In this document: in pieces, positions 6,505-26,617 of the stretch
Layout of the letters: every line of letters starts with the position of its first letter
Numbering within the stretch: position 1 is the first letter of the stretch
Source of the DNA: Idiomarina sp.
GTDB lineage: Bacteria > Pseudomonadota > Gammaproteobacteria > Enterobacterales > Alteromonadaceae
Direction of reading: 5' to 3'
NCBI RefSeq assembly: GCF_048260185.1
Contig: NZ_JBLXHB010000004.1
Coordinates: 88,622 to 152,621, forward strand
Length of the DNA stretch: 64,000 nt
Notes under the pieces: generated by a model
Seen by the model: only the letters and a program-made list of their open reading frames with translations
Told to the model about the DNA's origin: nothing
Database searches by the model: none
Program-made: the position numbers and the translations under genes

Positions 6505-6548
6505 AGCAATCGAATGAATGCGCCGATGCTCATTGATGAACTGGTACT

Positions 6549-7045: not shown

Positions 7046-7405
7046 ATGCTATGCCATCAAACTAAACCTTTTATCTTAAATTTTGCAACCAAGCGAGAAC
7101 TCTCACAGTCTCCGGAAATTGGTGGTTTTTACTCGGAACAAGCTGATATGTGGTTCGATGCAGAGTCCATGATGCCGGCAATTGATTCATTAGCGTTCAA
7201 CAGTGCGGAGCTAAATACAAAGACGAAAGTCGATGTTGAGAGAGACGATGAAAGTCCATACGCCCTCGAAATGATGACTAAGACCAAGGTGCATGAAGAG
7301 AGTGACGATACCGATTTAAGATCCTGCATCTTGAATAGTTTACTAACGAAAACTGACGTGGCGCAAGAAAAGGACGATAACTCGATGAGTCCTTATGACC
7401 TATGA
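7046..7405 (+). CDS. putative graspetide (omega-ester/amide RiPP) precursor with three core repeats
   Basis: 119 aa. The leader contains KPFILNF, resembling the microviridin-type PFFARFL recognition motif. Three repeats are present: TKTKVDVERDDES, TKTKVHEESDDTD and TKTDVAQEKDDNS (nt 7217-7384). They are rich in Thr/Lys donors and Asp/Glu acceptors. The stop overlaps the ATP-grasp start (ATGA). Confidence 0.6.
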   Translation: MLCHQTKPFILNFATKRELSQSPEIGGFYSEQADMWFDAESMMPAIDSLAFNSAELNTKTKVDVERDDESPYALEMMTKTKVHEESDDTDLRSCILNSLLTKTDVAQEKDDNSMSPYDL

Positions 7406-8349: not shown

Positions 8350-8992
8350 TTTATTATGGCCAAGACTATCAGGTAAATCAGATGACGAATCATTAAAGAG
8401 AGATCTTGAATTAATAAAGAAAGCTGATCCCGGTGACTTTGTTGATGTCGCGCTAGGCGAAGCTCGGAGGCTTTACGATCAAGAGCAACAACGAAGGTCC
8501 TCTGCTGACAGTAAGGGTGGACTATATCTTGGTGTCGCTACAGCTTTCCTCGCGTCACTAATCACATTGTCTCCATTAGCAATCGATATTATTGGGAGAT
8601 CAGAATCTGGTCTGTATTCGGCACTGTCGTGGCTAATGGTTATAACGATGGGCATATCAGCTATTGTTGCGTTTCGTTGTATTCTCTGGGCAAAACACGC
8701 ATTGAAAGTAGCAGCCTTTCGAACTATGAGCTGGAGAGATTTACTCAATGTTGGTGATGAAAAAGTTGAGCTGACCTTATTTCGTGACACTCTGAAATGT
8801 CTGCGTCACAATTATGTGGCGACGAATGAGAAAGTGACGAATGTGAAAATGGCGGAAGCACTTTTAAAAAGTGCGTGGTTTTGGCTAATCCTAAGCCTTC
8901 TTGTAAGACTTTTTTATCACCTAATAGAGGGCAGCCCGAGTGGCTCTGAAACTATCATCAATGTAATTAGCATCTGTTCTGAGATGGCGTGA
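8339..8992 (+). CDS. hypothetical membrane protein, third gene of the ATP-grasp operon
   Basis: The ORF track starts at a TTG at 8321; the ATG at 8339 (MNFDLLWPRL...) overlaps the ATP-grasp stop by 11 nt. It has 3-4 TM helices (LYLGVATAFLASLITLSPLAI; WLMVITMGISAIVAFRCILWA; AWFWLILSLLVRLFY). Confidence 0.5.
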   Translation: MNFDLLWPRLSGKSDDESLKRDLELIKKADPGDFVDVALGEARRLYDQEQQRRSSADSKGGLYLGVATAFLASLITLSPLAIDIIGRSESGLYSALSWLMVITMGISAIVAFRCILWAKHALKVAAFRTMSWRDLLNVGDEKVELTLFRDTLKCLRHNYVATNEKVTNVKMAEALLKSAWFWLILSLLVRLFYHLIEGSPSGSETIINVISICSEMA

Positions 8993-9130
8993 ATGGACTT
9001 CCCAGATTTTGCTAGACAAATTTAACCTTTACAATGTAACTAAAATGAGAGGTGTTTATGAGAAAAGGAAAACGTTGCCTCGTCTAAATATACATACGTA
9101 CTTTTACTACGGTCCTTGTCAGTTGCTGAC

Positions 9131-9568
9131 TCAAGCTTCATTTTCAAACCACAAGTATCCTAAAAACCTTGTCGAATCGTTATGAATAGCAAGGAATAGT
9201 TCTGACGCCTCTTTCTCAATTTTTAACAAACGTTCGTCAAGAGAAGCAGCTTGCCATTCTTGATAACCATTGTGTGCATCTATACAGGATGCAATAGCTT
9301 TATGACTTAGGAAGTTTCGTTCATCTTTGAACTTGTTGAGGCGTTTAACCAACTCTTGATTATCGGAAAACTTCTTAAATTCAGTAATTAGCCTTTCGAG
9401 AGAGTGGTTTTGAAAATCGTCGCCGGACATTCCAAAGGGCATACGGTCACCCAGACGTTTTTTTATGAGGGCGACAGCGTGAGCTAAATAGAGCTTCAAC
9501 TCCATCTCTACCATCTGACATCCTGATAGCGCTCTCGAAACCTTGAGGAAAAACTCGTCTTGCTCCAT
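9131..9568 (-). CDS. HEPN-domain protein (paralog 1)
   Basis: 145 aa, all-helical pattern. Rx4H motif RNFLSH. Shares the block L(E)RL...F.K......EL..RLNK.+..RN...H with the 12505..12933 product. Confidence 0.55.
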   Translation of the reverse strand: MEQDEFFLKVSRALSGCQMVEMELKLYLAHAVALIKKRLGDRMPFGMSGDDFQNHSLERLITEFKKFSDNQELVKRLNKFKDERNFLSHKAIASCIDAHNGYQEWQAASLDERLLKIEKEASELFLAIHNDSTRFLGYLWFENEA

Positions 9569-9585
9569 ATGCCCTCTAAACAGCT

Positions 9586-10050
9586 AACCTTTGAATATTG
9601 TGCGTGTGTTCTTCGTAACTCGTTCCATTTTTAGTTGCCGCATATTAAGTTGCTGCTCAAATGAGCATTCTGAGAGGTTTTGAGTTAACAAAAATCAACA
9701 TGAGCAAGCTAGCTTACCTTTTAAGGGGCGTACAATACTAAATTTTAGTTTTTCTTTATGTAATTGACACTAAACGACCTAAATACGCAAAACAACAACA
9801 AAACGTGCAATGTTGATGAGGCAAGCGTGCCGTACATCGTTAGCAACATTCCCACTTAACAATAGCAGGCCGGTTAATCTCTAAATTGAAGTAGAAAAAA
9901 GTCTTAAAAAGGCTAATGATTCGCTCTTCGTTTGTTGCTGAACTTCGGTTTCGTGCCAAGAGAGGACTTTAAATTTTACTCTCCGCGCCTCCATCTGCGA
10001 CAACTCAGGCTTTAGAGAACTAGTGGCGATTCAGTCATATTAGTGAGCCC
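9586..10050 (-). repeat. copy B (uninterrupted) of the ~470-nt conserved non-coding module
   Basis: Homologous block-by-block to 5261-5650 + 6909-6950. It lies between the stop of 10084..10797 and the start of 9131..9568. Confidence 0.7.
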
Positions 10051-10083
10051 TGCGTTCCTGTGCTTCCTCCTTGATAAGATACG

Positions 10084-10797
10084 TTACTCATTTATGGAGG
10101 AATCAATCCTCTGTACCCAAAGGTTTTTAAATTTATGAGCACTGATAACGTGTTTTATATTATCCATCAGCGTATAACCGATCGCAGAAAAAATAGCTCC
10201 AAGCATAAGTAAAGGCACCAGAATACTGTCTAAAAAGTGCTCTCCTTCAATCGAAAATAACTCCCTTATCAACAAACTAAAAAAACCGGACAGAGAGAAG
10301 GAAATACAAATAAGGGCACCAACTAAAAATGTGAGACTAAGCCTTTGGAGAGAGATTGAAGCTTTTTTAATACTCCAAACTTTATTAGACTTGGCTGTTG
10401 GAGCTATTAAAGCTTGCCGCCCCCTTGCGTAAGCCTCAACAGTCGTCAGAGGAAAACGTAAACGTGAAACTTCATCCTCCCCTAGTTCATCGACAAAAAC
10501 ATATCTGGCGTCATAGGCCTCCCAAATTTGCTCTTTTAGAGATCGTATCAACGCAGTATCAGAACTACGGATTATAAAATCATTGATTTCTTCCGAGTCT
10601 GCACTTTTCATAGCTTCCAATGAGGCTATTCGAAATTTATGATGTTCACGCTTTTTCTTTTTCGGATCCCAATCCGCAAGTAATTTTCGAAATCTGAAGA
10701 AAGCAAAGACTGCTATTGAGGTTCCAAGGACTATTATTGCAACATCTGAACCAATGAAATCAGTTTCTTTTATCAAGTTTAGTAATGTATTCAACAA
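10084..10797 (-). CDS. hypothetical multi-pass membrane protein
   Basis: 237 aa. One N-terminal TM (VAIIVLGTSIAVFAFF), a soluble middle region, and 2-3 C-terminal TMs (LTFLVGALICISFSLSGFFSLLI; LVPLLMLGAIFSAIGYTL). Confidence 0.5.
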   Translation of the reverse strand: MLNTLLNLIKETDFIGSDVAIIVLGTSIAVFAFFRFRKLLADWDPKKKKREHHKFRIASLEAMKSADSEEINDFIIRSSDTALIRSLKEQIWEAYDARYVFVDELGEDEVSRLRFPLTTVEAYARGRQALIAPTAKSNKVWSIKKASISLQRLSLTFLVGALICISFSLSGFFSLLIRELFSIEGEHFLDSILVPLLMLGAIFSAIGYTLMDNIKHVISAHKFKNLWVQRIDSSINE

Positions 10798-11322
10798 CCT
10801 ATTCCCTTTGAAGCTGGAGTGATTTAGCTCGCTTATATCTATTTACATTAGTAGAGTATTTTAATAAATATTCTACAATCGTTTAATAAGGTTAGATACT
10901 CAATTCACTTAAATTTGAGGGGGCCCTGACAGTTTCCTCGTCAAAAAATAACGAACACACATTGCGTTGCACTGAAAGATTTAACTCACAGCTCCTAGCG
11001 GCTTGAAGGTTCGATGCCAATAGCAGAGATTGGTATTTTTACGAATAACAAATTTGAACTGGTTCTTTGGTGAGCCGTGTCTAAAAAACTCCTCACCGCG
11101 TTAAGCATTTTACTGTCATTGAAAAAGTGTAAATCGCAAAAAAGTAAGGGTGGCTTACCATGCGGACACTCCAATTTCATATCAGGTGGCAAGAGAGCAG
11201 AAAAATTATAAAGCAATTTAGAATCAATAAGTTATAGAGGACTCTATGTTGCACATTGACTTCTTGTGTTAATTTCTCGTTAACAAAGCTAAGCTATTTT
11301 TTTATTTCTCTTTATTTTTTTC

Positions 11323-11895
11323 ATGTCAACCTCTATCATGTGCGGTGAACACAACTTTTCCTTTTATGTTAATTTTCTTATGAGCATTATGAATAAAGAG
11401 AGCATTTCAAGAATACTTGAAGCCTTCGCTTACATAGCGGAGCGCGCTCCTGCGCACAAGAAAAATATGTATAACGTGCTAAAGGTATTCTACCTTGCTG
11501 ATAAGCTCCATATGGAGCGTTATGGTCGCTTTATCTTTGATGAAAGTTACTCGGCAATGGAAAAAGGACCAGTTCCGTCAACAGCTTATGATCTGATTAA
11601 AAATATCGGAAAGGGTAAAGAGCTACCATTCTCAGTTGAGTCGCCAGTGAAGTTAGGTTCAAATTATATTGTTACTGCAAAAAGACAAGCAGATGAAGAT
11701 CTTTTTAGCGGTTCTGATCTGCTATGCATGGACGAAGTTATTCAGCTAAGTGAGAATGAAGATTTAGGTGACCTTAGTCACGACGAGGCATGGAAAAGGG
11801 CAGGACGCAATAACTTCATGCCTGTTGAAGCTATCCTATCAACGCTTCAAAATAGCAAAGCACTATTAGAGCTTCACCATAATAGACACCCTTGA
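11323..11895 (+). CDS. Panacea/DUF4065 (SocA-like) antitoxin-domain protein
   Basis: NVLKVFYLADKLHMERYGRFIFDESYSAMEKGPVPSTAYDLIKN matches the Panacea core pattern (KL.K..Y.AD..H....GR.I....Y.A...GPVP...Y). The likely true start is an internal Met at 11380 or 11389. Confidence 0.7.
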   Translation: MSTSIMCGEHNFSFYVNFLMSIMNKESISRILEAFAYIAERAPAHKKNMYNVLKVFYLADKLHMERYGRFIFDESYSAMEKGPVPSTAYDLIKNIGKGKELPFSVESPVKLGSNYIVTAKRQADEDLFSGSDLLCMDEVIQLSENEDLGDLSHDEAWKRAGRNNFMPVEAILSTLQNSKALLELHHNRHP

Positions 11896-11937
11896 TCGTA
11901 ATTAGGTGCCAGGGAAGAGTACGAGCAAGGGAAATAA

Positions 11938-12408
11938 ATGCCAGCCAGTCAAAGTCCATTTGCCAAATTAATAGAAAATAATCTGAGAGTAGGCGCGGTA
12001 CTTCACAAGCACTGCGATTTCACGACTCCACCCAAAAATAAATTCTTGGTTGTAGCATCACTTGAGCCTAGGTTACTAGTGTTATTGATTAACTCGGAAA
12101 TAAATCAGTTTTATTTTCAGGAAGGATTAGATCACTTCCATGTTCCTTTACCCGAAGCTGAGCACAAATTTTTAGCACATGATTCTTATGCAAGTTGCAT
12201 CGAAGCTCATACTGCATTTGATTGCAGCCAAATTAGGCAAGAAGTTCTTAATGACTATGTGAATGTTTTTAAAGGTTGGCTGACTGATGAATGCTTGGAA
12301 GCGGTATACCACGCAGTTAAAGGCAATAACATGATTCGTAAAGGTCATCAAAAGGAAATAATCGCTTCTATCGAAGGCCAGCTAACACATCTTCACACCG
12401 CCTTTTAG
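11938..12408 (+). CDS. hypothetical protein; candidate cognate toxin of the Panacea antitoxin
   Basis: 156-aa ORF 42 nt downstream of the Panacea gene on the same strand. No recognisable motif. Assigned from gene order only. Confidence 0.4.
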   Translation: MPASQSPFAKLIENNLRVGAVLHKHCDFTTPPKNKFLVVASLEPRLLVLLINSEINQFYFQEGLDHFHVPLPEAEHKFLAHDSYASCIEAHTAFDCSQIRQEVLNDYVNVFKGWLTDECLEAVYHAVKGNNMIRKGHQKEIIASIEGQLTHLHTAF

Positions 12409-12504
12409 GTTCCAAATTTCAACGTAATCTCCTCTCAATCGGATAAATAGGCGTCCGCCGGAGGGTCTTCCGGCCTAGAACGAACTGAAACAATTAGTTA
12501 GACC

Positions 12505-12933
12505 CTATTTTCCGGCAAAACCCGAGTGTAAGGCTTTCGTTTCTTCGACGACCAGGTCCAGACACTCTGTCAGTTCGTCTTCAAGGTAGAAAAACTCTCC
12601 ATGCTTTTTCTGTACGACCTCCTTGTCATATATAGTGCCCATGACGATGATTAGCGACTCATGCGCCACATGGTTTCTTTGAGCTCTAAGCTTATTCAGA
12701 CGTTCCAGTAACTCCCGATTGCCATTGAGCTTTCCAAAAACATTCAGCAGCCTCTCAAGAGGGAAATTCTCAACATCGGCTACTGAATAATCGAAATGCA
12801 TACGTCCATTCAGAGACAGGCCGATAAGCTCATAGGCTCTCCCGATGTACAGCTTCAGTGTCAACTCCAGTAACTGGAAATTACTCAGAATCCGGAGTGT
12901 CATAGCTTTGTAGGATTCGCGAACATCTGCCAT
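12505..12933 (-). CDS. HEPN-domain protein (paralog 2)
   Basis: 142 aa with Rx4H motif RNHVAH. Alignable by eye with 9131..9568 (PLERLLNVFGKLNGNRELLERLNKLRAQRNHVAH versus SLERLITEFKKFSDNQELVKRLNKFKDERNFLSH). Confidence 0.55.
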   Translation of the reverse strand: MADVRESYKAMTLRILSNFQLLELTLKLYIGRAYELIGLSLNGRMHFDYSVADVENFPLERLLNVFGKLNGNRELLERLNKLRAQRNHVAHESLIIVMGTIYDKEVVQKKHGEFFYLEDELTECLDLVVEETKALHSGFAGK

Positions 12934-12949
12934 TCTTGTGTCTAACCCC

Positions 12950-13459
12950 TCAATCAGCCAACGCGTTAGAGGTCGGCTGCATTGACTTATTAACTCTTAT
13001 TGCTTTGATAGTCGTAACCATTGTTTTGGCGGCTTCTTTTAACTTACTACGCTTTGATACGTAGTTTTCATCTTTATTTGATGTGGTCTCTAACTCGACA
13101 AATAACAATGATTTGGTAGCTAAATATGTTTCAGGAAAGAACTTTCTATTGGACTCAAGAAAAGCCATGCCGGATATTACGATCCCTCTAAACTCTCCGC
13201 GAGATGTGTAATCAAATTTCTCTAGCTTCGGCCATGACTCTAGCAATTTATCTGCTTCAAGCCTTGCATTCATTAATGCTCGATTCTCTGCCTCAAGATT
13301 ATGTGTTTCTACCCATGAATACGCAGCAACAACTGTGCTAATAACTGAAATTAATAATAACGCATAAGTTAGAGGCTTTTCTTTGTGCTTATAAAGCTGG
13401 AAAGCCAGGCCGAATAAGCTCGCTAGCGACGCAATTGTTGTAAAAATAGCTATACCCAT
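12950..13459 (-). CDS. hypothetical 2-TM / coiled-coil protein, upstream partner of HEPN paralog 2
   Basis: I place the start at MGIAIFTTIASLASLFGLAF (ATG 13459-13457), preceded by AAGGAG. The longer tracked ORF (to 13594) would read through an attC-like site and an IS end. The stop lies 16 nt before the HEPN start. Confidence 0.5.
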   Translation of the reverse strand: MGIAIFTTIASLASLFGLAFQLYKHKEKPLTYALLLISVISTVVAAYSWVETHNLEAENRALMNARLEADKLLESWPKLEKFDYTSRGEFRGIVISGMAFLESNRKFFPETYLATKSLLFVELETTSNKDENYVSKRSKLKEAAKTMVTTIKAIRVNKSMQPTSNALAD

Positions 13460-13483
13460 GCAAGCTCCTTGAGGGTAAAGAAA

Positions 13484-13535
13484 ATTAAAGCCGCGCTCTG
13501 CGGGAAGTTTGTCCGACAGCAACGCTTTGTTAAAA
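13484..13535 (-). other. attC-like site, short and partly degenerate (~52 bp)
   Basis: The arms GCCGCGCTCTGCGG / CCGACAGCAACGCTTTGTTA are near-identical to those of the 3507-3577 site. The GTTRRRY box is degenerate (CTTTAAT on the gene strand). Confidence 0.4.
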
Positions 13536-13579
13536 GTTGTCACGGCTAATCCACGAAGCCACAGCGAACAAATAGGCAA

Positions 13580-13712
13580 TGATACTGGGGGCATTCCACT
13601 CCGTAACGCTTCTCGTACTCTACTGGTGATAGTAAATTATTGTAACCATGTTTTTGTTTGCTGTTATAAAACATCTCGATGTAATCGAAGATATGACTTT
13701 GGTAAGTAAGGT
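13580..13712 (-). pseudogene. IS3-family transposase C-terminal remnant plus IS end
   Basis: The reverse strand translates to ...SHIFDYIEMFYNSKQKHGYNNLLSPVEYEKRY.... This is homologous to the C-terminus of the intact OrfB ([29 protein letters not shown]). Stops lie immediately upstream, and it ends ...CCCCCAGTATCA. Confidence 0.7.
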
Positions 13713-13888
13713 CAGGCTTAGGGAGAAATCCTATTCAATACTTTTAAACGATTGAGAAGTAAAATTTTTCACGAAAGCCTTATAATTCAATACTGACGTT
13801 AGAACAAGCGCCATGTAAACCTCTTTCTAATCGTCACAGGTAGCACATATTGCTTCAAAGAGGTGTTCGGCTAGCTCGCTCAAACTAC

Positions 13889-16800
13889 TTATTTAACGTT
13901 AGCCTCAGTGGATAACCTGGGACGCAAATCAAGAAGATGTACATGAATATAGGTATCACTTCCCAGAGCCTGTTGAACTCTGTCAGACTCAGCAATAAGC
14001 AACGATAACAACTGATCTGCTTTGATCTTGTGTTTCTCAACTGGATGATGCCATTGGCGATCTTTCGTAAGAGTTATCAGCAAAGCTCCAGCCCTACAGT
14101 GTTCAGCCGCCATATATTTTCTGACCAATTGCCCTTCAATTGTATCTAGCAGCTCTTTCGCAGAGCGATTTGCATTACCCAGCTTGAGTTCAATCACAGC
14201 TTCATGTTTCGACAGAACAGAACGCAGACGTATATCGGTTTCCTTCTCGTCAGCCGTTACCGCCTCTTGGTCGACAGTGTAAAGTGAATTTGCGGCGCGC
14301 TTAAGTTCTCGCGCAATTACTCGACGCATTATCTTCTCATCTGATATTAACGCCCAAGCTTCTCTCGGTGAATCGTCGTGTAGTAAAAGTTCATCAAGAT
14401 CAGATAACCGATCCTTCAATAACGCAAACATGGCTTCATTCGTTGAAGCTGGAGCTTCACCAGTTCTATCAAGATCTACTGCTTGAGCTTCATCAAATGT
14501 ATCAGCATCGATCTCTAGTGCCCAATTCTCTGCTGCCACAGCCAAAATGCGATCCTTGAAATGAGCGCACAAAGGATCTGCAGCCATTTCTATCTTGGCG
14601 GCCAAGCCCTCATTTCCTCTCGCGTCAAGCAATGCGCTTACAATGCTATTGCGCGCCTGTTCTGCGTTGTCTCTAGTGTCGGGTGAATAGGACCCTTCGT
14701 GGTGCGCATCGTCCTGTATTCGAACGTGGCGATAGGCCAAACGAAGAAGCCTGAGCAGTAATTGCGGCGTTAATCGTTCGTCACGCAAACTAATTCCGTC
14801 TTGGTCATTCCCAAAGAGTTTGGCTAGCCATGTCACAGCGTCCGATCGCTTAGAAGGTTCAACTCTCTTAACTAGGTCAGTTAGCCGTTCGATCCCCTCC
14901 TGCGGTTCAATCTGCATTAAGGTGGACAACCAAACAAGGCGCATCGAAAACGGCAATTGTTGCTCCAACCTCTGGAGTGCCTGTTCTTGAAGTTTCTTAA
15001 TTTCCGCAGCATTGCCATGCTTAATGATAATCCGTGTGGCTTGCCGAACCCTTCCGGCCATTCCGCTAGTGTCATCGCCACCATTAATATCCTCCCCACC
15101 GTCATCTAGCCAGGACTCCAGTCGCGGTAAAAATAAACAGGCAACCCTTTCAGGCGCATATTCAACTACTTGAAGTAGATTCAAAGAGCCTTGTTCACTT
15201 GACGACCGGTTCAGCTGCCACGAAAACTCATTTCCAAGCGTCCTGTCCACAGCTTTTGGATGTGTGTCTACGAGGTCCTCGAGCCACTTAGGCAGGCCGT
15301 TTAGTTCAATTGGAGCGTAACGCGCGGCTAGCTCAGCTTCGGCATCGCTGAGTTTAGCTTCCCAGCCTGGGGCCTCCGCTTCAGCGTAGATCGCGGCCAG
15401 ACCAAGTTGCCAACGTACAAGAAATGTATTGCGCTCGCCTTCGGACCTTTCGCTGGGAAAAGTTGGATGGTCATCACGCCAGATCTTCATCAGCACCCGG
15501 CGAAGCTTGTCGGCCGTGTCTTGATTGAATTGCTCTTCAATGAATCGCCGGTTCCAGCCTGATGCTCTACTGTCTGCACCATCATGACTCATAGCGCGCC
15601 ACAAGTTCCAAGCTGTGTTCCAGCTTTGCTCCGTCGAAAATGCTTTTTCAGGCTGGTTGGCAACTTCTCGCCAGAACTGAATCCAGCTCGCGCGGCTCTT
15701 GGCCTTACGCCGCTCTTCCTGCTTCTTTTTTTCAGCCTGCTCCTTTTCCCAATGAAGATGCTCTTTTTCGTATTTCGATGGCTTCAGCCAGTCGTCAAGT
15801 CTTTGCACGAATGAAGGTTCATCCACTATGAGGGACCTAAGTCCCTCATAGTGTTTTCTCCTTGTATCACGATCCGGCGACAGACGGATGGCTGCCTCCA
15901 AGAGCATTGCGCGTTCATCCGCATCCCGGGTCGTGTCTCCAAGCGCTTCGCTCACCCAAGTCAGATCCCGGTCCGGTCTTAGCTGAACCGGTCCATCGTG
16001 GATAGTGAGTTCTGCGAGCCGTCTCCAAGGATCTTTGATTTCATGGAGCGACTGCAGCAAAGCGTCCTCAACCCAGAAAAGACGCTCATTGTCCTCTGCT
16101 TTCAGATTGATGAGCTGTTTGCGAAGTGATTTGATCGATTCGTCGTTATAATGGTCTTGGTGGTGTAATCGCAATGCGACTACACTAGCATGAAGCCACT
16201 GATCGTCTTGGCTTATATCCAAGCCGCGTTTACATGTTGCTGCGAGTGCTTCACTGAGATGTGCCCGATCACTGGTAATATGCGGCCACTCTTTTCGCCA
16301 TGTAAGCCCCTCTGAGACAAGCGCAAGGAAGCCGTTACGAAGTTCCTCAAGGTCAGGGAACTCAAGAGACGACCTTGCTATCAGAATTGGAAGTTGCCAA
16401 TTAAAGTCGCCTATATTTCGCTTCCCTTGCTTTATCCATCTAAGGGTCCGACAAAGCTGCTCAACCGACATGTACTTTGGAAAAAGGCGTAGTATGGCAC
16501 CGCATGCTACTCTATCAGGCCAGAGATAATCACCATCAGCTATACAGACAGAAATGCTTTCTAATCTCTCGTCAGCGAGTGCGACTAACGCGTCAATAGC
16601 CATTATACGTTCGACCGCAGTTGCTGAAATGTCCTGAGTTATATCGAATACGATATCTGCACAAGCTTCTATGCGACCAGCTTCTATAAGGCTGATGAGA
16701 ACTTCTCGCACATCCGGATTCTCTACCCCACAACGCCAAATCCTTTCAACTTCTTTTGCCAGCCCATTCGACGCAAATCGATGGACCTGAATGTGAGGAA

Positions 16801-18193
16801 CCTGAAGGCCTCTCCACCCACCAGGGCCGTAACGTTCAGCGTAGGCGTAAAGAGCTTGATTTCGCTGCGTCTGCGTTAACGACTCTGGATCGCCTTCATT
16901 TAGAAGTACAGCAGGCTCATGGTCCCGCAAGAGTTCAAATATCCCGTTTTCTTTCAAGGCTAACCATCCAGCGACTGGCCGCTTGGACGGCTTAACGATC
17001 ATTTTGCTTTTGGTCTCAGCGAAGATAATCCGCTTGAGGGCTCGAAACGGCATGCCATGTTTTCTAAGCGCTATTAGCCGCTCGGTAGCAAGATACTCCG
17101 CGACCGAACGATGATGAAAACGCACTCTGCCATATGAAGCGAAACCAAATAGCGGACGCTCCAGCAGTGCCTTTCGTTCGTTCGGTTGCCAATCGGATAG
17201 GATTACCGCGGGATCAAGAGCTGCCTCTTCGTTAATAGCATCGGACTCTGCACTATGACGAATAGTTAGACGACGTGTCATCTGAACTGCAAGCGCGAGT
17301 CGGCTAGCTCCCTCAATTGCCTTGTCGACAGACAATTCCGCTGGTTCAGGTCTGTATTCGCGAGGAAGTAACTTCACACGAACATTCGTATCGACCTGAT
17401 CGTGATGTGTTCGGATGCGTTTATGCTTACTCCAGTCTGCGCATAACTCAATAAGATCCTGAGGTCTGCGTGCAAACTCTAGGGCATTTCGACGTAGTAA
17501 GTCTTCAAAAAGAAGGTCAGGATGGCTCACTCCCTCATGCCGACAAAAATCGACTATCTGCTCGTCCGACAGCGGCATTAAGCCTACAGACCGCCAATCG
17601 GGCGATTCATTTGGGTTGCTATTGTTATGTTGCTCCCGATGCTCACGCATTGCGATCTTTGCAAATGCATCTTCATTGGATTCCGAAGACGGAGCTGGAG
17701 GAACAGGTAATACACTTCGGACCAGCTGTTCGTCGAAGGGGATTGGTCGTGACGTGATGACGATTCGCGCCCGGTGAAGTTGACCTCCAATACGCTTTTT
17801 CAGTCGCTTAAGCGCGCGTTCAAACGAACCCATCGTCAATTTTAGTTCATCAATCGAGTCCAAAAAAAATGTCGCTATTTCATACTGTGAGGCAAGCCAA
17901 GCATCCAAGCGGGCTTCTTCGTCTACATCTAACAGGCTGACAAGGTCTTCTGTTGCCAATGCGGCTAATTCAACGAAGAATGCAGGCTCTCCCTCATCCC
18001 AAAGGCGCTTTGACTGTTTACGGCATTCGTAGGTTTTTCCTGCCCCAGCCTCGGAAACTATCAGTATACGTTTTGACTGAAGCAAATCATCCCATGTATT
18101 TCCCCGTGACCAGCCCAATCCGACTAAAAAAGACTGTTCGTCGGCATCGGTGACCTTCCCTTCAGGAATATCATTGAAAATCCGTTCTACCAT
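13889..18193 (-). CDS. NACHT/STAND-type P-loop NTPase (1434 aa) with long helical C-terminal region and terminal PD-(D/E)xK-like motif
   Basis: Walker A VSEAGAGKTY, Walker B FFLDSIDEL and IVITSRP follow the NACHT order, starting ~45 aa from the N-terminus. About 900 aa of helix-rich sequence follow. Near the C-terminus, ETDIRL...AVIELKLG...QLVRKY gives a D...ExK...Q..Y arrangement. The gene is visibly more G+C-rich than its neighbours. Confidence 0.7.
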   Translation of the reverse strand: MVERIFNDIPEGKVTDADEQSFLVGLGWSRGNTWDDLLQSKRILIVSEAGAGKTYECRKQSKRLWDEGEPAFFVELAALATEDLVSLLDVDEEARLDAWLASQYEIATFFLDSIDELKLTMGSFERALKRLKKRIGGQLHRARIVITSRPIPFDEQLVRSVLPVPPAPSSESNEDAFAKIAMREHREQHNNSNPNESPDWRSVGLMPLSDEQIVDFCRHEGVSHPDLLFEDLLRRNALEFARRPQDLIELCADWSKHKRIRTHHDQVDTNVRVKLLPREYRPEPAELSVDKAIEGASRLALAVQMTRRLTIRHSAESDAINEEAALDPAVILSDWQPNERKALLERPLFGFASYGRVRFHHRSVAEYLATERLIALRKHGMPFRALKRIIFAETKSKMIVKPSKRPVAGWLALKENGIFELLRDHEPAVLLNEGDPESLTQTQRNQALYAYAERYGPGGWRGLQVPHIQVHRFASNGLAKEVERIWRCGVENPDVREVLISLIEAGRIEACADIVFDITQDISATAVERIMAIDALVALADERLESISVCIADGDYLWPDRVACGAILRLFPKYMSVEQLCRTLRWIKQGKRNIGDFNWQLPILIARSSLEFPDLEELRNGFLALVSEGLTWRKEWPHITSDRAHLSEALAATCKRGLDISQDDQWLHASVVALRLHHQDHYNDESIKSLRKQLINLKAEDNERLFWVEDALLQSLHEIKDPWRRLAELTIHDGPVQLRPDRDLTWVSEALGDTTRDADERAMLLEAAIRLSPDRDTRRKHYEGLRSLIVDEPSFVQRLDDWLKPSKYEKEHLHWEKEQAEKKKQEERRKAKSRASWIQFWREVANQPEKAFSTEQSWNTAWNLWRAMSHDGADSRASGWNRRFIEEQFNQDTADKLRRVLMKIWRDDHPTFPSERSEGERNTFLVRWQLGLAAIYAEAEAPGWEAKLSDAEAELAARYAPIELNGLPKWLEDLVDTHPKAVDRTLGNEFSWQLNRSSSEQGSLNLLQVVEYAPERVACLFLPRLESWLDDGGEDINGGDDTSGMAGRVRQATRIIIKHGNAAEIKKLQEQALQRLEQQLPFSMRLVWLSTLMQIEPQEGIERLTDLVKRVEPSKRSDAVTWLAKLFGNDQDGISLRDERLTPQLLLRLLRLAYRHVRIQDDAHHEGSYSPDTRDNAEQARNSIVSALLDARGNEGLAAKIEMAADPLCAHFKDRILAVAAENWALEIDADTFDEAQAVDLDRTGEAPASTNEAMFALLKDRLSDLDELLLHDDSPREAWALISDEKIMRRVIARELKRAANSLYTVDQEAVTADEKETDIRLRSVLSKHEAVIELKLGNANRSAKELLDTIEGQLVRKYMAAEHCRAGALLITLTKDRQWHHPVEKHKIKADQLLSLLIAESDRVQQALGSDTYIHVHLLDLRPRLSTEANVK

Positions 18194-18280
18194 GCTTTTA
18201 ATGCCACCTATCAGGTTGTCTGTCTATCTTTGAATAAACGAGATACCCAGAGATTGAATAGCGATTAGCTTACTAGAAAC

Positions 18281-18532
18281 TCATTCGCCCCTTTTAAGCT
18301 CACTCATTTTGACTCGGATCTTATCAAAGCAGTCCTCACAAAAATCATAGCTGAATACTTCACCATCATGCTTTGAGCCATAACCGAATTCAGCAGTTAA
18401 CCGGGCAAACGAAGAGAATTCATCTAATCTGTCCAGGTTGTTCTTTTGAAATTCGGGTACCACGCTTTGACCACAAATGTCGCACTTAATATCGACAACG
18501 ACCTTCGTAGTCTTTTGGGCTTTCTTTCTCAT
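18281..18532 (-). CDS. small zinc-ribbon protein
   Basis: 83 aa with the paired motifs CDICGQ...CEDCFDK. Lies 12 nt downstream of the 272-aa gene and 87 nt upstream of the NACHT gene. Confidence 0.45.
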   Translation of the reverse strand: MRKKAQKTTKVVVDIKCDICGQSVVPEFQKNNLDRLDEFSSFARLTAEFGYGSKHDGEVFSYDFCEDCFDKIRVKMSELKRGE

Positions 18533-18544
18533 GGTGTTACCTTT

Positions 18545-19363
18545 TTACTTATTGATTTGTTCATAGCCATCGCCAACTTTTATAAATATCCTTCTTTTTA
18601 CCTCAAAGGGTTTATCAATAAGCGCCTGAACCGGCACAATATCGCTTATGTCGGAAATATCACCAATGTTCAGTTCAAGTGCTCCTTTTGAATTTAAGCA
18701 CTGCTTGTGAACGCCAAAAGAAATCCTAAATTCCATCTGCCATGAATATTTACAATCTTTTGTATACAAGCCGATGGGACCAGAATAATTCTCTAATGGT
18801 TTATAATCGACCAAGCCATAGCCGTCATCTAAAAGCTTAGAGCTAAATGTACCAGGTAGCTTTTTTATTGCTTTGTTTATCCGGTATGAAAACTCGCTCG
18901 GCTTGTTTATAAGTAAAACATGCGAACCGAAATCGAGAAATCGCTTATCAAAGTGTATTTTTCCATCAATTTCATTGGGGATTAAGCCATCTTCATTGTC
19001 AGCAAAAGCCCCCATGCAAAATAGCATTGTATTTTCAGGTCTTGGAAAGTGGGCAGTAAGAACTGCATCAGAGCCTAAATCAACTTCCTCATCATTAACT
19101 TTGATAGATAACGTGGCGTAACCCGAGGGGGTATTTCCTGCTCGCAATATTCCATATACTTTCTCTAACCCATCGGCTCGTAAAGCCAGACTCTCCTCAC
19201 CTTCTAAATTTGAAAAGTACTCAAGACTATTCATGTAGAGCAGGCCTTTCTGCATCTTCAAAAGCCTGTCAATTGAGGCTACTTTGAAAAGTAACCAAAA
19301 GTCCTTCCTGGGTGGCTTCGCGATAAAATTGTGAGGTGTATTTGCAGTTTTCATATGACCCAA
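18545..19363 (-). CDS. hypothetical protein (272 aa), no family recognised
   Basis: Long uninterrupted ORF, co-directional with its defence-type neighbours. The N-terminal region LLFKVASIDRLLKMQKGLLYMNSLEYFSNLEGEE loosely resembles DUF2971-like openings, but I cannot assign it. Confidence 0.5.
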   Translation of the reverse strand: MGHMKTANTPHNFIAKPPRKDFWLLFKVASIDRLLKMQKGLLYMNSLEYFSNLEGEESLALRADGLEKVYGILRAGNTPSGYATLSIKVNDEEVDLGSDAVLTAHFPRPENTMLFCMGAFADNEDGLIPNEIDGKIHFDKRFLDFGSHVLLINKPSEFSYRINKAIKKLPGTFSSKLLDDGYGLVDYKPLENYSGPIGLYTKDCKYSWQMEFRISFGVHKQCLNSKGALELNIGDISDISDIVPVQALIDKPFEVKRRIFIKVGDGYEQINK

Positions 19364-19528
19364 AATCTAGATTAAAACCCAGTTTCATCCTATCAGCTCG
19401 TAGGTTTTTAGCTAAGATTTTTAATGGGTCAAGAGGGACTTTTTCTGCCCCGTTATCACGGACGGTTAAAAATCGGGGTAGAACCCCAGTTTGCTGAAAT
19501 TTTAGGGAAAATCTAAATCGACACGAGT

Positions 19529-20389
19529 TCACTCATACCCACCATCACAATACCATTCGCTCTGCGCTAGCGCCTGAAATAAGGCGGCTTTCCATGAGTT
19601 AGCATCCACACAGGCATACTTTTCGAACTGGTCTTGTAAATGTTGCTTGATATAGCCCCTGCCCATTTCGTTTTTATATTTGCTTAAAATACCTGTGAGG
19701 CAAGATAGCTCATCAGCTGCCTCTATACCGTATCTTTTTTCTAAAGAGTAGCTTTCAAAATGCGCTAGAACTCTCGCTTTGGAGACAGGGTCCCAATTTT
19801 CCGGTGGGTTAACGAAGTATCGAATGGACGGAGGGTCAGAGCGTGAAACCTCAGCATATAACCACTGTTCATTGATTATCTGATTGGATTCGAAATACGG
19901 GTGTAACGTTTGTGTTTCTGCAGATATAGCTACAATATCTCTTTTACCAGTGTTGCAGTCTTTACATGCGGGAACTAGATTTAGAGGAGTGACCGAAAAA
20001 ATGGGGTATTTTGATTTGGGTAGGTAGTGATCTAATGTGGACGCATAGCCTAGAGCACATAAAGGGCACCTACCGTTGGGAGCCTTGGATAGTATTTTGT
20101 CATAGACCTCTCTACCGGGTCTGTTGATTCGAGCTACCTGGTTTGAATAAAGCTCTTTTAGTTCTTCCTTGGTAACATTCCCTACAACTATGTCATTGTT
20201 ATCAGAGTTATCTGCTGGAATTCTGTATAGCTCTTTTACGCTACCTAGCTGGGCATAGTTATATGAAGCCTGTCCAATGCTTGGTGAAACTTCCTCAAGC
20301 CTGCCACAAAGTTGCTCATCTCGGTATCCACGAGCACATCTCTGGAAGAAAGCCTCAGCATTATCAACTGGCGGTATTATTGTTCTCAT
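19529..20389 (-). CDS. ptuB: HNH endonuclease, Septu PtuB-like
   Basis: CPLCALGYASTLDHYLPKSKYP...NLVPACKDCNTGK is a CxxC...DH...N...CxxCN HNH signature. It starts 6 nt after the ATPase gene ends. Confidence 0.65.
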   Translation of the reverse strand: MRTIIPPVDNAEAFFQRCARGYRDEQLCGRLEEVSPSIGQASYNYAQLGSVKELYRIPADNSDNNDIVVGNVTKEELKELYSNQVARINRPGREVYDKILSKAPNGRCPLCALGYASTLDHYLPKSKYPIFSVTPLNLVPACKDCNTGKRDIVAISAETQTLHPYFESNQIINEQWLYAEVSRSDPPSIRYFVNPPENWDPVSKARVLAHFESYSLEKRYGIEAADELSCLTGILSKYKNEMGRGYIKQHLQDQFEKYACVDANSWKAALFQALAQSEWYCDGGYE

Positions 20390-20395
20390 AATTTG

Positions 20396-21955
20396 CTAGT
20401 TTTTATCTCTACTGTTTATCAAGGAGCGGAGCAACGCTTTACCTTCAAACCCGATTTGTCCGTTGAACGAGGTCTCAATTTGCTCATACGACTGACCTTT
20501 CGATACTAGTGAATTAAATAGTTCTAAATATCCTGATTTAGAGACTTCTAGCCCGAAAACGTCTCTAGTTAAGCGACCAACATTCTCTGCGAAAGTTTCT
20601 ATCTCTGGTCGGGAAATATCAAATATGCCTCTCTTTCGCCTTATAACGGAAACACATAATTGCGGAACTTCTTGTAAGACTACAGGAGAATGCGTAGCGA
20701 CTATAGCGACGCCGTTTCTGTTTAAAAGTAAGTCTGATAACGCTCGTGTGAATGCGGACAAAAGTGGCGGATGCAAGTGACTTTCTGGCTCATCAAGAAA
20801 AACTATAGTTTTTTCTTCAACTGACTCAACGAGCTTAGTCATTGTAAGCAAGACTATTGAATGGCCAGAGCTCATTCGATGAAAAATAGAGTATGCTTGC
20901 TGGTTAAAGCGGGTACGATCTTGTTTGTATAAATCAACAAGTTGATTTAACTGCATCTCTTCAAAGTTTAAGTCCGACTCGAGTTTTTTTATTGCCTCTA
21001 ACCAGCGGGCCTCTTTAGCAGACAAGGATAAGCACCTATCTAGGCTAATAACGAAGTCGGAAGCTAGTTCATTTTTTGTTTTCAGGCTCCGCGTCTCTGC
21101 ATTGGAGTCTTTATTGGTTTTTTGAAGACCAATATATTTGTACCTCATGCCGCCCGAGGAGCTTTGCTGGTCCTCGGGCGGTTCGAAGGCGTCAAAAGCG
21201 CTAAAAGATACAGATACTACCCCGGCAAAATAATCCTCATCTAGTTTAGTTTCTAACGGAAGAAAGTTGCCATTACTATAAAATGCACCAGGAATCTTGG
21301 CCTCATCTTCCTCCCTAGCTAACAATGAACTGAGCATATTATTTATGAGCGTTGTCTTCCCCACACCATTTCGGCCGATTAATATATGAACGTTTGAGCT
21401 TGGCATTGACTTAGGTTCTACCTGAAAGGAGAGTTCGACTGCTGAAAAGCCCCCGCTAGCAGCTTGTTTATATGAGAAATCGTACTCACTCAAAGCTGCG
21501 TCGCCCTTAATAATTCTTTGGAACTGATTAGAGATCGTCGAATGGTTTACCATTCTCATTAAAGATGTATTAAATGAATCTTCACTTTCGACGTGTTTAA
21601 GTAATTCGGGGTAATAAATCACGTCTCTTAACGCGGTTAGGGTGTATTGAGCAAGCTCTTGAGGAACTTCCTCCATTAGAGCTTTGTAATAATCTGCGTC
21701 CTGGCCTAATGAAAAGAAACTCTCTGGAAGTTGCTCGAAATGGCTTTCGATGCTTTCTGCTGTTGCTCCTTCCTTTTGTCCAAAAAAGCCAATTTTCACA
21801 CTCCCTACGTCATATCGGTTTGACTCTGAGTCAAAGATAGTGAGTGAGAATAATGTCTTAAAACCGAAATCGTCCCAATTGTCAGCTTGCAAGATTATCT
21901 GGCTTTTCGCGTCGTTAGGTATAGAGGTGCGAGAATTTAGTTTTCGAATGTACAT
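20396..21955 (-). CDS. ptuA: ABC/AAA15-type ATPase, Septu PtuA-like
   Basis: 519 aa. Walker A LIGRNGVGKTTL, signature-like SSGHS, Walker B IVFLDEPESHLHP and a D-loop/H motif (VATHS). The ~190-aa N-terminal extension is as seen in the PtuA/OLD-like ATPase class. Confidence 0.65.
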   Translation of the reverse strand: MYIRKLNSRTSIPNDAKSQIILQADNWDDFGFKTLFSLTIFDSESNRYDVGSVKIGFFGQKEGATAESIESHFEQLPESFFSLGQDADYYKALMEEVPQELAQYTLTALRDVIYYPELLKHVESEDSFNTSLMRMVNHSTISNQFQRIIKGDAALSEYDFSYKQAASGGFSAVELSFQVEPKSMPSSNVHILIGRNGVGKTTLINNMLSSLLAREEDEAKIPGAFYSNGNFLPLETKLDEDYFAGVVSVSFSAFDAFEPPEDQQSSSGGMRYKYIGLQKTNKDSNAETRSLKTKNELASDFVISLDRCLSLSAKEARWLEAIKKLESDLNFEEMQLNQLVDLYKQDRTRFNQQAYSIFHRMSSGHSIVLLTMTKLVESVEEKTIVFLDEPESHLHPPLLSAFTRALSDLLLNRNGVAIVATHSPVVLQEVPQLCVSVIRRKRGIFDISRPEIETFAENVGRLTRDVFGLEVSKSGYLELFNSLVSKGQSYEQIETSFNGQIGFEGKALLRSLINSRDKN

Positions 21956-22220
21956 TAAAAGGACCGTAGCAGTTATTGCTTAATTGTTTGATACTGTATT
22001 TGTAAAGAAGCTTGATAGCAAACAAGCTTCTGGGAAAGCTTTATTACGCTCTTGAGGATTACCTTGGCTCTACTCGTAGCGCATGAGTTAGTGTTTTTTC
22101 TGTGGCCTGACGACTGAATCGGCACTAGCTCACTAGACACTCAGTAGCCGTTTTTGGAGTGTTTAGATAATTCAAAAGCAGTAAAAATCAACAATCGGGC
22201 TAAGGTTGAAGTTTAATCCA

Positions 22221-23372
22221 CTAGTCTTCCGGCCACATCAAATATGGTTCTGCGTAAGTAAATTTTGAATGATCTAGAGCTATGCTGTGCCGTCTGTAAA
22301 AGTCAGACTCGGGCCCGTTGAAATCAGATAAAGCTTTCATCTTCTGATTAGTAGACATTTTTCTAATTATTCTTAAACGCTTGCTATAATTGGAAATTCC
22401 CATACCTGCTAGGTAGTCTATTAGTATCAGAAGATTTAGCTCGCACCGACGTGTTAAACGTACATCGGCTCTAGTAGGGATAATAGCTAAATTTGCAAAA
22501 CAGCTCGTGTATTCGCAGTCGTGACATTTCGATGTTTGACTTTTATAGGCTTTTTCGGTTATGGCTCCCCGGTTGATAGCACCAGAATCTAAGTGTTTGA
22601 CTTTAGATGACTTATTAAAGAAGTCCGTGAATCCTTGATGCTTATTTTCTTTTGCTGAGTAATATATTTTTTTCATCATGTATGGTTTAGTGACGAAGCT
22701 TACTGAGCCGTATTGCGCACCAAGTAACTCCTTTGAAAAAAGTTTGAAATTCTGTGTGACCCAATTTTTAAAGTCGTTAACCAAACAGGGAAGGAAGTAG
22801 TCATTAATGTGTTTCTGCGAATCTTTTTGGGGGGCTAGAATATAGCCTGCTTTATAATTAAGGCTTTCGTAATCCTCAGGGTGTTCCCCTTTCAATATAA
22901 AGTTTAGAGCAGCAACGGCTTGTTCTCGGTTATTCGCTTTAGCAATATGAAGTTTCATATTGTGAATTGAGCAATATGAGTTTTGATACCAGTCAATACT
23001 AATTATCCCATATCCAAAATTCTGAATATAGTTTTTGATGCATTCAAGACAGTAGGTTATAGGGAACGTTCTTTGTCTGGCTCCTATTTTTCGCTTATTT
23101 ATGCCAAAAAATCTTTCTAGTTCATCCCGGTAAGAAGCGGGATTACCGAAAATATCATTTGTTTTATGTGCCAAGCCAAAGTCTCTCAATAAGTTCAGAA
23201 ACTTTAAATCATCAACTGGCTTATATAGATGCAAAGAGCCTTTTAATATTTTAGGTGATGCAGCCCAGAGACCCTTACTTGTAATGATATTGGAAAAACT
23301 CGAAACTCCATTTACCATATGAGTACGGAAAACATAACTGTGGATAGATTCTTTTTTTTGAATCTTTAGCAA
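22221..23372 (-). CDS. second, short TniQ-like target-selector candidate
   Basis: 383 aa. The N-terminus (ESIHSYVFRTHMVNG) and the Cys/His cluster YCLECIKN...YCSIHNMKL parallel the TniQ/TnsD zinc-finger region of the adjacent 521-aa protein. It occupies the position of tnsE or a second tniQ. Confidence 0.5.
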   Translation of the reverse strand: MLKIQKKESIHSYVFRTHMVNGVSSFSNIITSKGLWAASPKILKGSLHLYKPVDDLKFLNLLRDFGLAHKTNDIFGNPASYRDELERFFGINKRKIGARQRTFPITYCLECIKNYIQNFGYGIISIDWYQNSYCSIHNMKLHIAKANNREQAVAALNFILKGEHPEDYESLNYKAGYILAPQKDSQKHINDYFLPCLVNDFKNWVTQNFKLFSKELLGAQYGSVSFVTKPYMMKKIYYSAKENKHQGFTDFFNKSSKVKHLDSGAINRGAITEKAYKSQTSKCHDCEYTSCFANLAIIPTRADVRLTRRCELNLLILIDYLAGMGISNYSKRLRIIRKMSTNQKMKALSDFNGPESDFYRRHSIALDHSKFTYAEPYLMWPED

Positions 23373-23573
23373 AAAACATTCCTCAAAAGCAGATTGGTGG
23401 AACGGTTTAACATTGGTAAATGAACATTTATCTAGAGCTATAAAAGCGCGTAGGGTCTATCAACGCTGGATGTCAATATAAACAAGTTTTCCGCAAGTTT
23501 CTTTTGTTATTGCTTGAGAGCTACTGAAATTTAGCAGGAGAACGGCAAAACTTAAACAGCTTGGTCTTTGATA

Positions 23574-25139
23574 TTATGGCTTGTTAAGCTTTTGGAGCTC
23601 TAACATTGTGAGAGGCAGTTTGTGTAGCTTCCGTGTTAGCCAACCATGCCCGCCTAGCATCCTATCTATATGGGTACGCGAAATTTTTCCATCGCAATTA
23701 GTTAAAATGCCTTTAACTTGTGGAGCTAGCTCGAGGTCACGTTTTTTCCAGTCGACTTTTGGGGGTAATTTAGGCTTTGTTGGCTTCGGCAATGTTTGAT
23801 TGAGCCAATCTCTCTCATTCGCATAAAGCCAATAAAAAGCTGAATAACAACTCTTTTTAATTTGTTCTCGGGTGGCTGAGTGATTCATTTGCATCGCTCT
23901 CAGTACTGTTGCTTTATAACATCGTCTTTTTGATTGGTATTTATATTGTCTTCTTCTTACGACTAGACCTTCTTCGGAGGATATGATTTGCTCTACACTA
24001 CCAGTTGATATGCGTAACTCGTTGGCAATTTTCTGGCGGTGAAACCCTTTATATGCCATTGATATCACGGCTTTTATAACTTTTTTATTAATCAGCCTCG
24101 GCCTAAGGCTTATCGCGACATTATTCTTTATTGCTAAAGCTTTCAAATAGCACCTACTTTTTCCTGTAATTTCGCTTACTTTAGCCATTGATTTCCCTTG
24201 CTTTAAAAGGCTCAGGCACAGTTTAGACTTATCCTTGTTAATTGGTTTCTCCTCAGTTGTACTGATTTGATATTTATCGAAGTCAGGTAGCTTATTATTT
24301 AACCAAAATAGTATCAGTAGATACTTAAAGGGGTGTTGGCATACCGATCCTGATAATAAATAGGAAAGGTACCGGTAGTCTTGCTCAGAGACTGGTAACA
24401 AACCAGTTGAAGTACGTTTTAAGCCCATTGCAAAATGAAAAAAGTCTGATGTTAACTGTTGTCTCTTGAATCGCGTTTCGCCACACATGTACCCAAGGTC
24501 TTTTAAGCGCTCTAAGAGGTTGGGCAGACTAAAAAATTCATTTGATAAAGAAATATGATGTATGTAATTTTTCGTAAATTTTGCGAGTTTGAAGCTCATC
24601 TCTTGGCATTCTTCGAATTTTTCAGAACATTTGGGTAATAGGAGTGGTTTTATGTGCGGTCTAGCAGGGAGTCCCTGGTGCATAAGCCAGACTTTATGCT
24701 CCGAACATGCTTCTATTCCAGGTATTTGGTGAACTCGATGCCAATATGTAACCCCGAATTGTCTTATGTCGTTATTGGCACACACAGGACAGTATTTTAA
24801 AGATAATAACTCCGATTCTTTGAAGGTAACTAGTTGAGATGCTCTAATCGCCGCAGTCCCGTTGTTTCGAAGAAGTGCGTTTGAAATTGATTGAGCATGT
24901 TGGGGTAAAAAGTACGAAAAAAAACTTCCTAGTGTTTGTTCTTGATAAATTTTAAATATTGAATCTTTACATATGCTGGCCGCTTTAGTGATACCTACAG
25001 TCAAGTATGGGTGAATACTTGCACGGGGCTTATTTAGTAGGGCTTTAAGGTAGTCACACTCTGTCATTCCTAGAATGGTCATATGCCGGACATAACGACT
25101 AAATAAAGTTTCGTCAGGTAATGGTGAGGGAAGCTGCAT
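23574..25139 (-). CDS. tnsD: TnsD/TniQ-family target-site selector
   Basis: 521 aa. The TniQ N-terminus is MQLPSPLPDETLFSRYVRH and the CCCH zinc finger is CPVCANN...WHRVHQIPGIEACSEH. C-terminal HTH-like repeats are present. It lies directly downstream of tnsC. Confidence 0.8.
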   Translation of the reverse strand: MQLPSPLPDETLFSRYVRHMTILGMTECDYLKALLNKPRASIHPYLTVGITKAASICKDSIFKIYQEQTLGSFFSYFLPQHAQSISNALLRNNGTAAIRASQLVTFKESELLSLKYCPVCANNDIRQFGVTYWHRVHQIPGIEACSEHKVWLMHQGLPARPHIKPLLLPKCSEKFEECQEMSFKLAKFTKNYIHHISLSNEFFSLPNLLERLKDLGYMCGETRFKRQQLTSDFFHFAMGLKRTSTGLLPVSEQDYRYLSYLLSGSVCQHPFKYLLILFWLNNKLPDFDKYQISTTEEKPINKDKSKLCLSLLKQGKSMAKVSEITGKSRCYLKALAIKNNVAISLRPRLINKKVIKAVISMAYKGFHRQKIANELRISTGSVEQIISSEEGLVVRRRQYKYQSKRRCYKATVLRAMQMNHSATREQIKKSCYSAFYWLYANERDWLNQTLPKPTKPKLPPKVDWKKRDLELAPQVKGILTNCDGKISRTHIDRMLGGHGWLTRKLHKLPLTMLELQKLNKP

Positions 25140-25183
25140 GATCAGTCCACAAATTAATTTTGTTGTCTATATTTTAGACTACT

Positions 25184-26611: not shown

Positions 26612-26617
26612 TGTGCC

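Follow-up and report, generated by a model that had tools for sequence, protein, structure and literature searches.

How should a 1,434-residue protein with NTPase motifs at its very start be classified, and which part of it could serve as an effector? The gene in question, hyoA, lies on the reverse strand of a 64,000-nucleotide stretch of Idiomarina sp. DNA (assembly GCF_048260185.1, contig NZ_JBLXHB010000004.1, positions 88,622 to 152,621), hereafter the window, to which all coordinates refer. By its sequence, the protein belongs to Hypnos (HyoA), for which a name, a curated model and mechanistic studies already exist, and the copy here is intact. Its match to the NCBIfam equivalog NF058534, 'NACHT domain-containing antiphage protein HyoA', scores 1590.8 bits where 1200 are required and runs from residue 3 to residue 1426, over profile positions 2-1430 of 1430. 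The NCBIfam model of EruA reaches only 118.9 bits on the same protein, against a cut-off of 1000. We take the gene names Hyo and Eru to stand for Hypnos and Erebus; a literature search under HyoA and EruA returned nothing relevant.

Erebus, Hypnos and bNACHT64 are grouped as Avs10 in PMC13581612 (Nature 2026). According to that paper Avs10 senses phage major capsid proteins, its sensor is TPR-like, and co-expression of an HK97-fold major capsid protein triggers cell death; effector domains, mutated or deleted in that work on the family, are needed for this death. Phage protection by the Hypnos family is credited there to its reference 17, van den Berg et al. 2024 (Cell Host Microbe), in which Hypnos and Erebus were named. 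We infer the Avs10 membership of the Idiomarina protein solely through the Hypnos name. The family goes without mention in DefensePredictor, in the domain-centric Nucleic Acids Research paper, in the language-model preprint and in the metagenomic-selection preprint.

A search of 5.8 billion proteins returns 1,278 relatives of HyoA, nearly all of them 1,425-1,480 residues long. Their hosts, gammaproteobacterial and others, include Idiomarina, Vibrio cholerae, Dickeya, Aeromonas, Cronobacter, Klebsiella, Serratia and Citrobacter, with Cohaesibacter, Parvularcula and Gluconobacter among the Alphaproteobacteria. The present copy shares with the family its full-length curated match, its length, its motifs and its nature as a single gene moving between unrelated defence islands. 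No structural difference is apparent: it is an ordinary new ortholog, and its closest relative among the matches listed is 84% identical. PADLOC 2023 does not classify HyoA and gives only a weak PDC-M34A match over residues 1268-1335; a Pfam scan of the protein finds nothing significant, with a weak DUF5343 match over the same residues. Megablast of hyoA against complete E. coli genomes yields no match, a look-up of contigs encoding the identical protein found none, and a genome-contig scan for the gene returned one Shewanella locus.

Domain architecture of HyoA

The hyoA reading frame spans 4.3 kb, is unbroken and opens with ATG. An initial annotation had described it as an NTPase followed by a helical sensor and a nuclease-like end. 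The frame and every motif quoted there are in place: GAGKTY begins at residue 50, FFLDSIDEL at 109, IVITSRP at 144, ETDIRL at 1318 and AVIELKLG at 1332, with Q1355 and Y1360 further on. Chance is no explanation for them, as the quoted residues are at least 97% conserved in 121 family members and those of the C-terminus are invariant down to 40-54% identity.

We modelled residues 1-480 with AlphaFold2 from 64 sequences, at a mean predicted local distance difference test score (pLDDT) of 71. Residues 1-32 are disordered in the model (pLDDT around 30), and a loop at 167-206 is both unstructured and variable. The top Foldseek match is Avs4 bound to portal (8dgf; expectation value, E, 2.4e-5), followed by NLRC4 (8fw2, E 3.2e-5), NAIP/NLRC4 (E 1.5e-4), NLRP9 (E 1.6e-4) and the NACHT of NLRP3 (E 1.4e-3); the matches to Avs4, NLRC4, NLRP9 and NLRP3 cover 430-520 aligned columns. 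Cdc6/Orc1 and clamp loaders rank lower. Together with the invariant Walker A, Walker B and sensor 1, these matches place the module, as modelled, with the STAND NTPases of NLR type and not with the non-STAND P-loop families. The label NACHT rests on the NCBIfam name, on the grouping with bNACHT64 and on the structural matches to NLRs.

There is no room for an effector in front of this module, nor any trace of one: Walker A is reached by residue 47, and residues 1-32 are unstructured. By convention the open reading frame (ORF) is opened at the first ATG, GTG or TTG past the upstream stop, which rules out a longer N-terminus. HyoA thus departs from the canonical layout of effector, NTPase and sensor, having no effector N-terminal to its NTPase.

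Conservation along the protein is uneven. Column identity is lowest, 0.70-0.78, in residues 501-800 and 1001-1150, and rises to 0.83-0.92 in the NTPase module past residue 200 and to 0.84-0.88 in the C-terminal region (1151-1350). Since the middle is the least conserved part and the NTPase and C-terminal regions the most, the profile fits a variable sensor held between two constrained enzymatic modules. The roughly 900 helical residues announced for this region by the initial annotation hold as far as models reach: helices are predicted for residues 210-480 and 1101-1285.

A second AlphaFold2 model, of residues 1101-1434, has a pLDDT of 84.4, with about 90 over the final domain. It is helical as far as residue 1281. 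Then follow α1 (1286-1300), β1 (1305-09), β2 (1321-25), β3 (1331-38), α2 (1345-60), β4 (1368-75), α3 (1392-1410) and β5 (1415-22), with the core order α-β-β-β-α-β of PD-(D/E)xK nucleases. The first helix contains E1286, and D1320 opens strand 2; E1335 and K1337 belong to strand 3, Q1355 and Y1360 to the second helix. All six, as well as Y1305, E1310 and R1322, are invariant across 31 C-terminal sequences, which share 40-54% identity with HyoA here and come from a 47-member set reaching 31%. The last 130 or so residues, in which ETDIRL, AVIELKLG and the downstream Q....Y had suggested a PD-(D/E)xK arrangement, hence model with that core and not as a non-nuclease fold. With the empty N-terminus, this argues for the predicted order of NTPase, sensor and effector. 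On the strength of the model, a nuclease fold is likely; a nuclease role and activity are suggested by its topology and by residue conservation.

Residues 1240-1434 have 805 relatives in a search of 1.84 billion representatives, and among the 150 of them listed the domain is C-terminal in every full-length protein (about 1,430 residues), the shorter entries looking like partial genes; only Hypnos-type proteins and fragments are found among these listed matches. Structural matches are weak, the query having carried 180 residues of helical linker that dilute the scores. They include restriction endonucleases at E 0.02-0.1, those of E 0.046-0.085 with probability 0.33-0.69 (EcoO109I, E 0.046; Kpn2I, E 0.085, probability 0.69; PaqCI), an XisH-like excision factor (2okf) and a Cdn1 protein. 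In a viral library a phage 'restriction endonuclease' model (probability 0.90, template modelling score 0.46, E 0.098) is joined by Cas4/RecB, 'PD-(D/E)XK nuclease', Mrr-like and Rpb5 models. Nuclease names recur among otherwise unrelated weak matches; many unrelated proteins, such as AAA+ ATPases and designed proteins, stand in the same lists at similar E-values.

Proposed mechanism and competing explanations

We propose, with a probability of about 0.8, that the hyoA product is a single-protein anti-phage receptor of the Hypnos family grouped in Avs10, acting as follows. In the resting cell HyoA would be an autoinhibited monomer. Upon infection its long helical middle region would bind a tailed-phage major capsid protein of HK97 fold, as family members do (PMC13581612) and as this copy presumably does by analogy. 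Capsid binding would free the N-terminal NACHT-type NTPase for ATP-dependent oligomerisation, a step expected from the way STAND proteins work and from the preserved state of Walker A, Walker B and sensor 1. The oligomer would then gather the C-terminal PD-(D/E)xK-like domains into an active nuclease that degrades DNA, and the cell would die or arrest before the phage completes its cycle (abortive infection). We infer both the effector role of the C-terminal domain and its being a nuclease, as well as the way in which its copies meet. HyoA is a single-gene system: neighbouring genes differ between loci, and DNA homology stops within 25 bp of the ORF ends. A defence context, with Septu 1.3 kb upstream and a SocA/Panacea-domain protein close by, speaks for the proposal too.

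The order NTPase, sensor, effector inverts what is usual in Avs proteins. Avs1-4 and Avs7, as described by Gao et al. 2022 (Science) and in PMC13581612, resemble HyoA in combining a STAND NTPase with a large helical region; their helical sensor wraps a conserved phage protein, the capsid protein also in the case of Avs7, and their killing domain is of PD-(D/E)xK type, Mrr or Cap4 (PMC13581612). The N-terminal module also finds its best structural match in Avs4. In these proteins, however, the nuclease is N-terminal and tetramerises beside the NTPase ring, whereas HyoA has an empty N-terminus and carries its nuclease-like domain in the last 150 residues, past the sensor. The animal NLRs (NLRC4, NLRP3, NLRP9) share the NACHT-type NTPase fold with Foldseek E-values of 3e-5 to 1e-3; HyoA differs from them in having no LRRs, PYD or CARD, and in an effector that would be enzymatic where that of NLRs is an adaptor. 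A C-terminal effector on an NLR has precedent, since NLRP1 carries its death-signalling CARD at the C-terminus. Erebus is a separate family, though a related one: its EruA profile covers HyoA residues 204-1366, through the sensor and into the D...ExK...QxxxY region, leaving the NTPase part unaligned. From this alignment Erebus appears to share the arrangement with the NTPase first and the C-terminal domain last.

Several results weigh against our reading. The accessible text of PMC13581612 gives no effector location for Avs10, and capsid sensing is known from other homologs rather than from this HyoA, which is at most 84% identical to the matches listed. At the N-terminus, the Pfam NACHT model does not match HyoA at E up to 1, and only AAA_22 appears (E 0.027). 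For the C-terminal model, Foldseek gives no match at E ≤ 0.001, the best standing at 0.02. Across the 31 members, neither Pfam (DUF5343, E 0.002-0.01; DpnII-MboI, E 0.096) nor PHROGs yields anything significant for this domain, and its profile retrieves only chance matches among PDB sequences, to staphylococcal superantigen-like proteins. The catalytic geometry is itself judged from the positions of residues in modelled elements.

HyoA could accordingly be a Hypnos-family receptor whose C-terminal fold is no killing nuclease. Such a degenerate domain might serve DNA binding, autoinhibition or oligomer contacts, toxicity arising from the oligomer or from a recruited host factor. Inactive PD-(D/E)xK folds occur in other proteins, Rpb5-like models are among the weak matches, and the domain has no significant similarity to any characterised nuclease; the Avs10 effector, too, is not named in the accessible literature. 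We nevertheless consider this explanation unlikely: the E, D, ExK and QxxxY positions are all invariant at 40-54% identity, as one expects of an active enzyme, HyoA shows no second domain that could be the effector, and the family requires effector domains for cell death (PMC13581612). It is very unlikely that hyoA is a decaying or inactive copy left by IS3 activity. An IS3 remnant does lie 161 bp downstream, and a scan of the 400 bp upstream detected no consensus sigma-70 promoter; the scan is a crude consensus test and gave nothing informative on promoters or terminators around the gene. The frame is unbroken, though, the family profile is matched from end to end and all catalytic motifs are intact.

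Very improbable, finally, is a STAND-type signalling or regulatory ATPase that is unrelated to phage defence and lies in a defence island incidentally. Many STAND clades are non-defensive (PMC13581612) and PADLOC 2023 leaves the protein unclassified, but its full length matches a curated anti-phage model above cut-off, and its family gave cell death on capsid protein (PMC13581612). Pfam finds in it no DNA-binding output domain typical of STAND regulators, and defence genes adjoin it both here and at homolog loci: Septu, a Gabija-like pair (OLD/UvrD), AbiH, SIR2 and a restriction-modification system.

The capsid-sensing receptor that we favour brings little new biology, being one more ortholog of a family with a name, a curated model and a published trigger. 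Because its architecture belongs to the named and experimentally studied Hypnos/HyoA family, the novelty of the reading is lowered, not its correctness. Interest attaches solely to the position of the proposed effector at the C-terminus, which may merit structural work. Tentatively, the effector of Hypnos/Erebus-type Avs10 could be a PD-(D/E)xK nuclease of a kind not classified before, located past the sensor. If so, the domains that activation must join lie some 1,200 residues from the NTPase ring. No Avs of solved structure (Avs3, Avs4, Avs7) assembles with such a geometry; in all of them the nucleases are N-terminal and form tetramers next to the ring. Such a placement may already appear in the supplementary figures of PMC13581612 or in the 2024 Hypnos paper; if it is not yet structurally analysed, Hypnos is a good case for how a STAND oligomer activates an effector past its sensor. 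Residue-level predictions for the domain are available in E1286, D1320, E1335, K1337, Q1355 and Y1360.

Mobility of hyoA and its genomic setting

The nucleotide homology of hyoA to five other loci amounts to 74-87% identity. Between genera it ends at most 25 bp from the start codon and 18 bp from the stop codon (13871-18218). The neighbours differ between Vibrio cholerae, Klebsiella, Shewanella and another Idiomarina: a relaxase/TrbL element adjoins the gene in V. cholerae, a Gabija-like pair (OLD/UvrD) with AbiH in the Klebsiella loci, and SIR2 on an Idiomarina metagenome contig. No partner gene is conserved in the five other loci. As neighbours vary and homology stops at the ORF ends, hyoA moves on its own, which bears out the separate acquisition suggested by the initial annotation; what is carried between Gamma- and Alphaproteobacteria is the ORF alone. 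No cassette signal was seen that would explain such precise transfer. An integron-cassette origin was considered and rejected: homology ending 18 bp past the stop leaves no room for a conserved attC.

Base composition had been adduced for the same point, the gene being called richer in guanine and cytosine (GC) than the surrounding cargo and arguably than the core genome. The first comparison stands, as hyoA has a GC fraction of 0.492 against 0.409 in positions 1-13888 and 0.399 in 18194-29600. The second does not: the core (29683-64000) reaches 0.501, and at third codon positions hyoA has 0.452 against 0.49-0.65 in core genes. In other hosts the gene keeps a GC fraction of 0.46-0.52, whatever the composition of its flanks.

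In the window hyoA is cargo of a complete Tn7-like transposon, which documents Hypnos in such an element in the chromosome of a marine Idiomarina, beside Septu (1.3 kb upstream of the gene). PriA and MetL, encoded in the right half of the window, belong to clusters that bear the name Idiomarina (loihiensis/abyssalis group). The inverted ends, TGTGAAGTGACAATATAG and TGTGAAATGATAATTTAG, begin with TGTGAA; TGTGAAATGATAATTTAG is the right end, and the left end lies at 1964. Close to each end, motifs of the form AGTTTGCAC(G/A)C recur, and TTACC stands at 1959-1963 and 29679-29683 as a target duplication of 5 bp. The right end is situated 4 bp past the stop codon of a gene for a yhiN-like flavoprotein, a flavin adenine dinucleotide enzyme (29683-30864).

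The insertion-sequence remnant reported downstream of hyoA is genuine: beyond its rve_2 match, it is similar to the C-terminus of the intact IS3 OrfB in the same transposon. Over 22 nucleotides, the downstream flank of that OrfB (5663-5684) is identical to positions 13577-13598 of the remnant, read in the opposite orientation. Transposase genes of the IS3 family, or remnants of them, adjoin hyoA in three distinct contexts, namely here, in Klebsiella (two similar loci) and on the Idiomarina metagenome contig; in the comparison loci they lie at 10434-11566 (L003), 10522-11621 (L004) and 3668-4264 (L005), on either side and in either orientation. This adjacency could be chance in islands rich in insertion sequences, or a hint of IS3-assisted movement of hyoA.

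Table 1. Coordinates of hyoA, its domains and motifs, and the features of the surrounding transposon.
Feature	Position	Strand	Basis or remark
hyoA (Hypnos/Avs10-family) gene, intact, 1,434 residues	13889..18193	-	ORF and NCBIfam NF058534
STAND/NACHT-type NTPase module, residues 1-480 (nucleotide-binding domain, helical and winged-helix parts)	16754..18193	-	AlphaFold2 and Foldseek
Walker A SEAGAGKTY, residues 47-55	18029..18055	-	S47, E48, A49, G50, G52, K53 and T54 invariant in 64 sequences
Walker B FFLDSIDEL, residues 109-117	17843..17869	-	F109, L111, D112, S113, D115, E116 and L117 invariant
IVITSRP, sensor-1-type strand typical of NACHT proteins, residues 144-150	17744..17764	-	T147, R149 and P150 invariant; modelled strand 142-147
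Middle region, presumed helical TPR-like sensor, residues 481-1280	14354..16753	-	least conserved part of HyoA
C-terminal PD-(D/E)xK-like domain, putative nuclease effector, residues 1281-1434	13892..14353	-	AlphaFold2 and conservation
Putative catalytic D1320 ... E1335-x-K1337	14183..14236	-	invariant in the 31 sequences 40-54% identical to HyoA here
IS3-family transposase C-terminal remnant	~13546..13728	-	Pfam rve_2 positions 24-53 of 56, E 9.8e-5
Tn7-like transposon, complete, 27.7 kb, with hyoA as cargo	1964..29678	.	Tns genes, inverted ends, direct repeat
tnsA	28722-29606		
tnsB-like	26618-28735		
tnsC/tniB	25184-26611		
tnsD/tniQ	23574-25139		
Second tniQ-like gene	22221-23372		
Septu PtuA ATPase	20396-21955	-	631 bits against PADLOC PtuA1
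Septu PtuB, HNH partner	19529-20389	-	PDC-M01B, 327 bits
SocA/Panacea-domain protein (190 residues), then 156-residue ORF without family match	11323-12408	+	
Intact IS3-family OrfB within transposon cargo	5698-6504	-	rve, rve_2, rve_3, HTH_21

Of the remaining cargo, the SocA/Panacea ORF and the 156-residue ORF after it are possibly a Panacea-type toxin-antitoxin pair. The four ORFs that flank hyoA (83, 272, 214 and 142 residues; 18281-19363 and 12505-13594, reverse strand) have no significant match in Pfam or NCBIfam, nor do the three longest of them in PADLOC; the 214-residue product has a hydrophobic N-terminal stretch. A 330-residue protein (3582-4574, reverse strand) carries four MSP1-EGF-like repeats (E 2e-10), unusual for a bacterium, and positions 7402-8992 on the forward strand encode a RimK-like ATP-grasp enzyme with an overlapping 223-residue ORF of no assigned function. 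The sequence to the left of the transposon (1-1963) is AT-rich as well, with a GC fraction of 0.41-0.43 against 0.50 in the core on the right, so the transposon may adjoin another island or an AT-rich gene.

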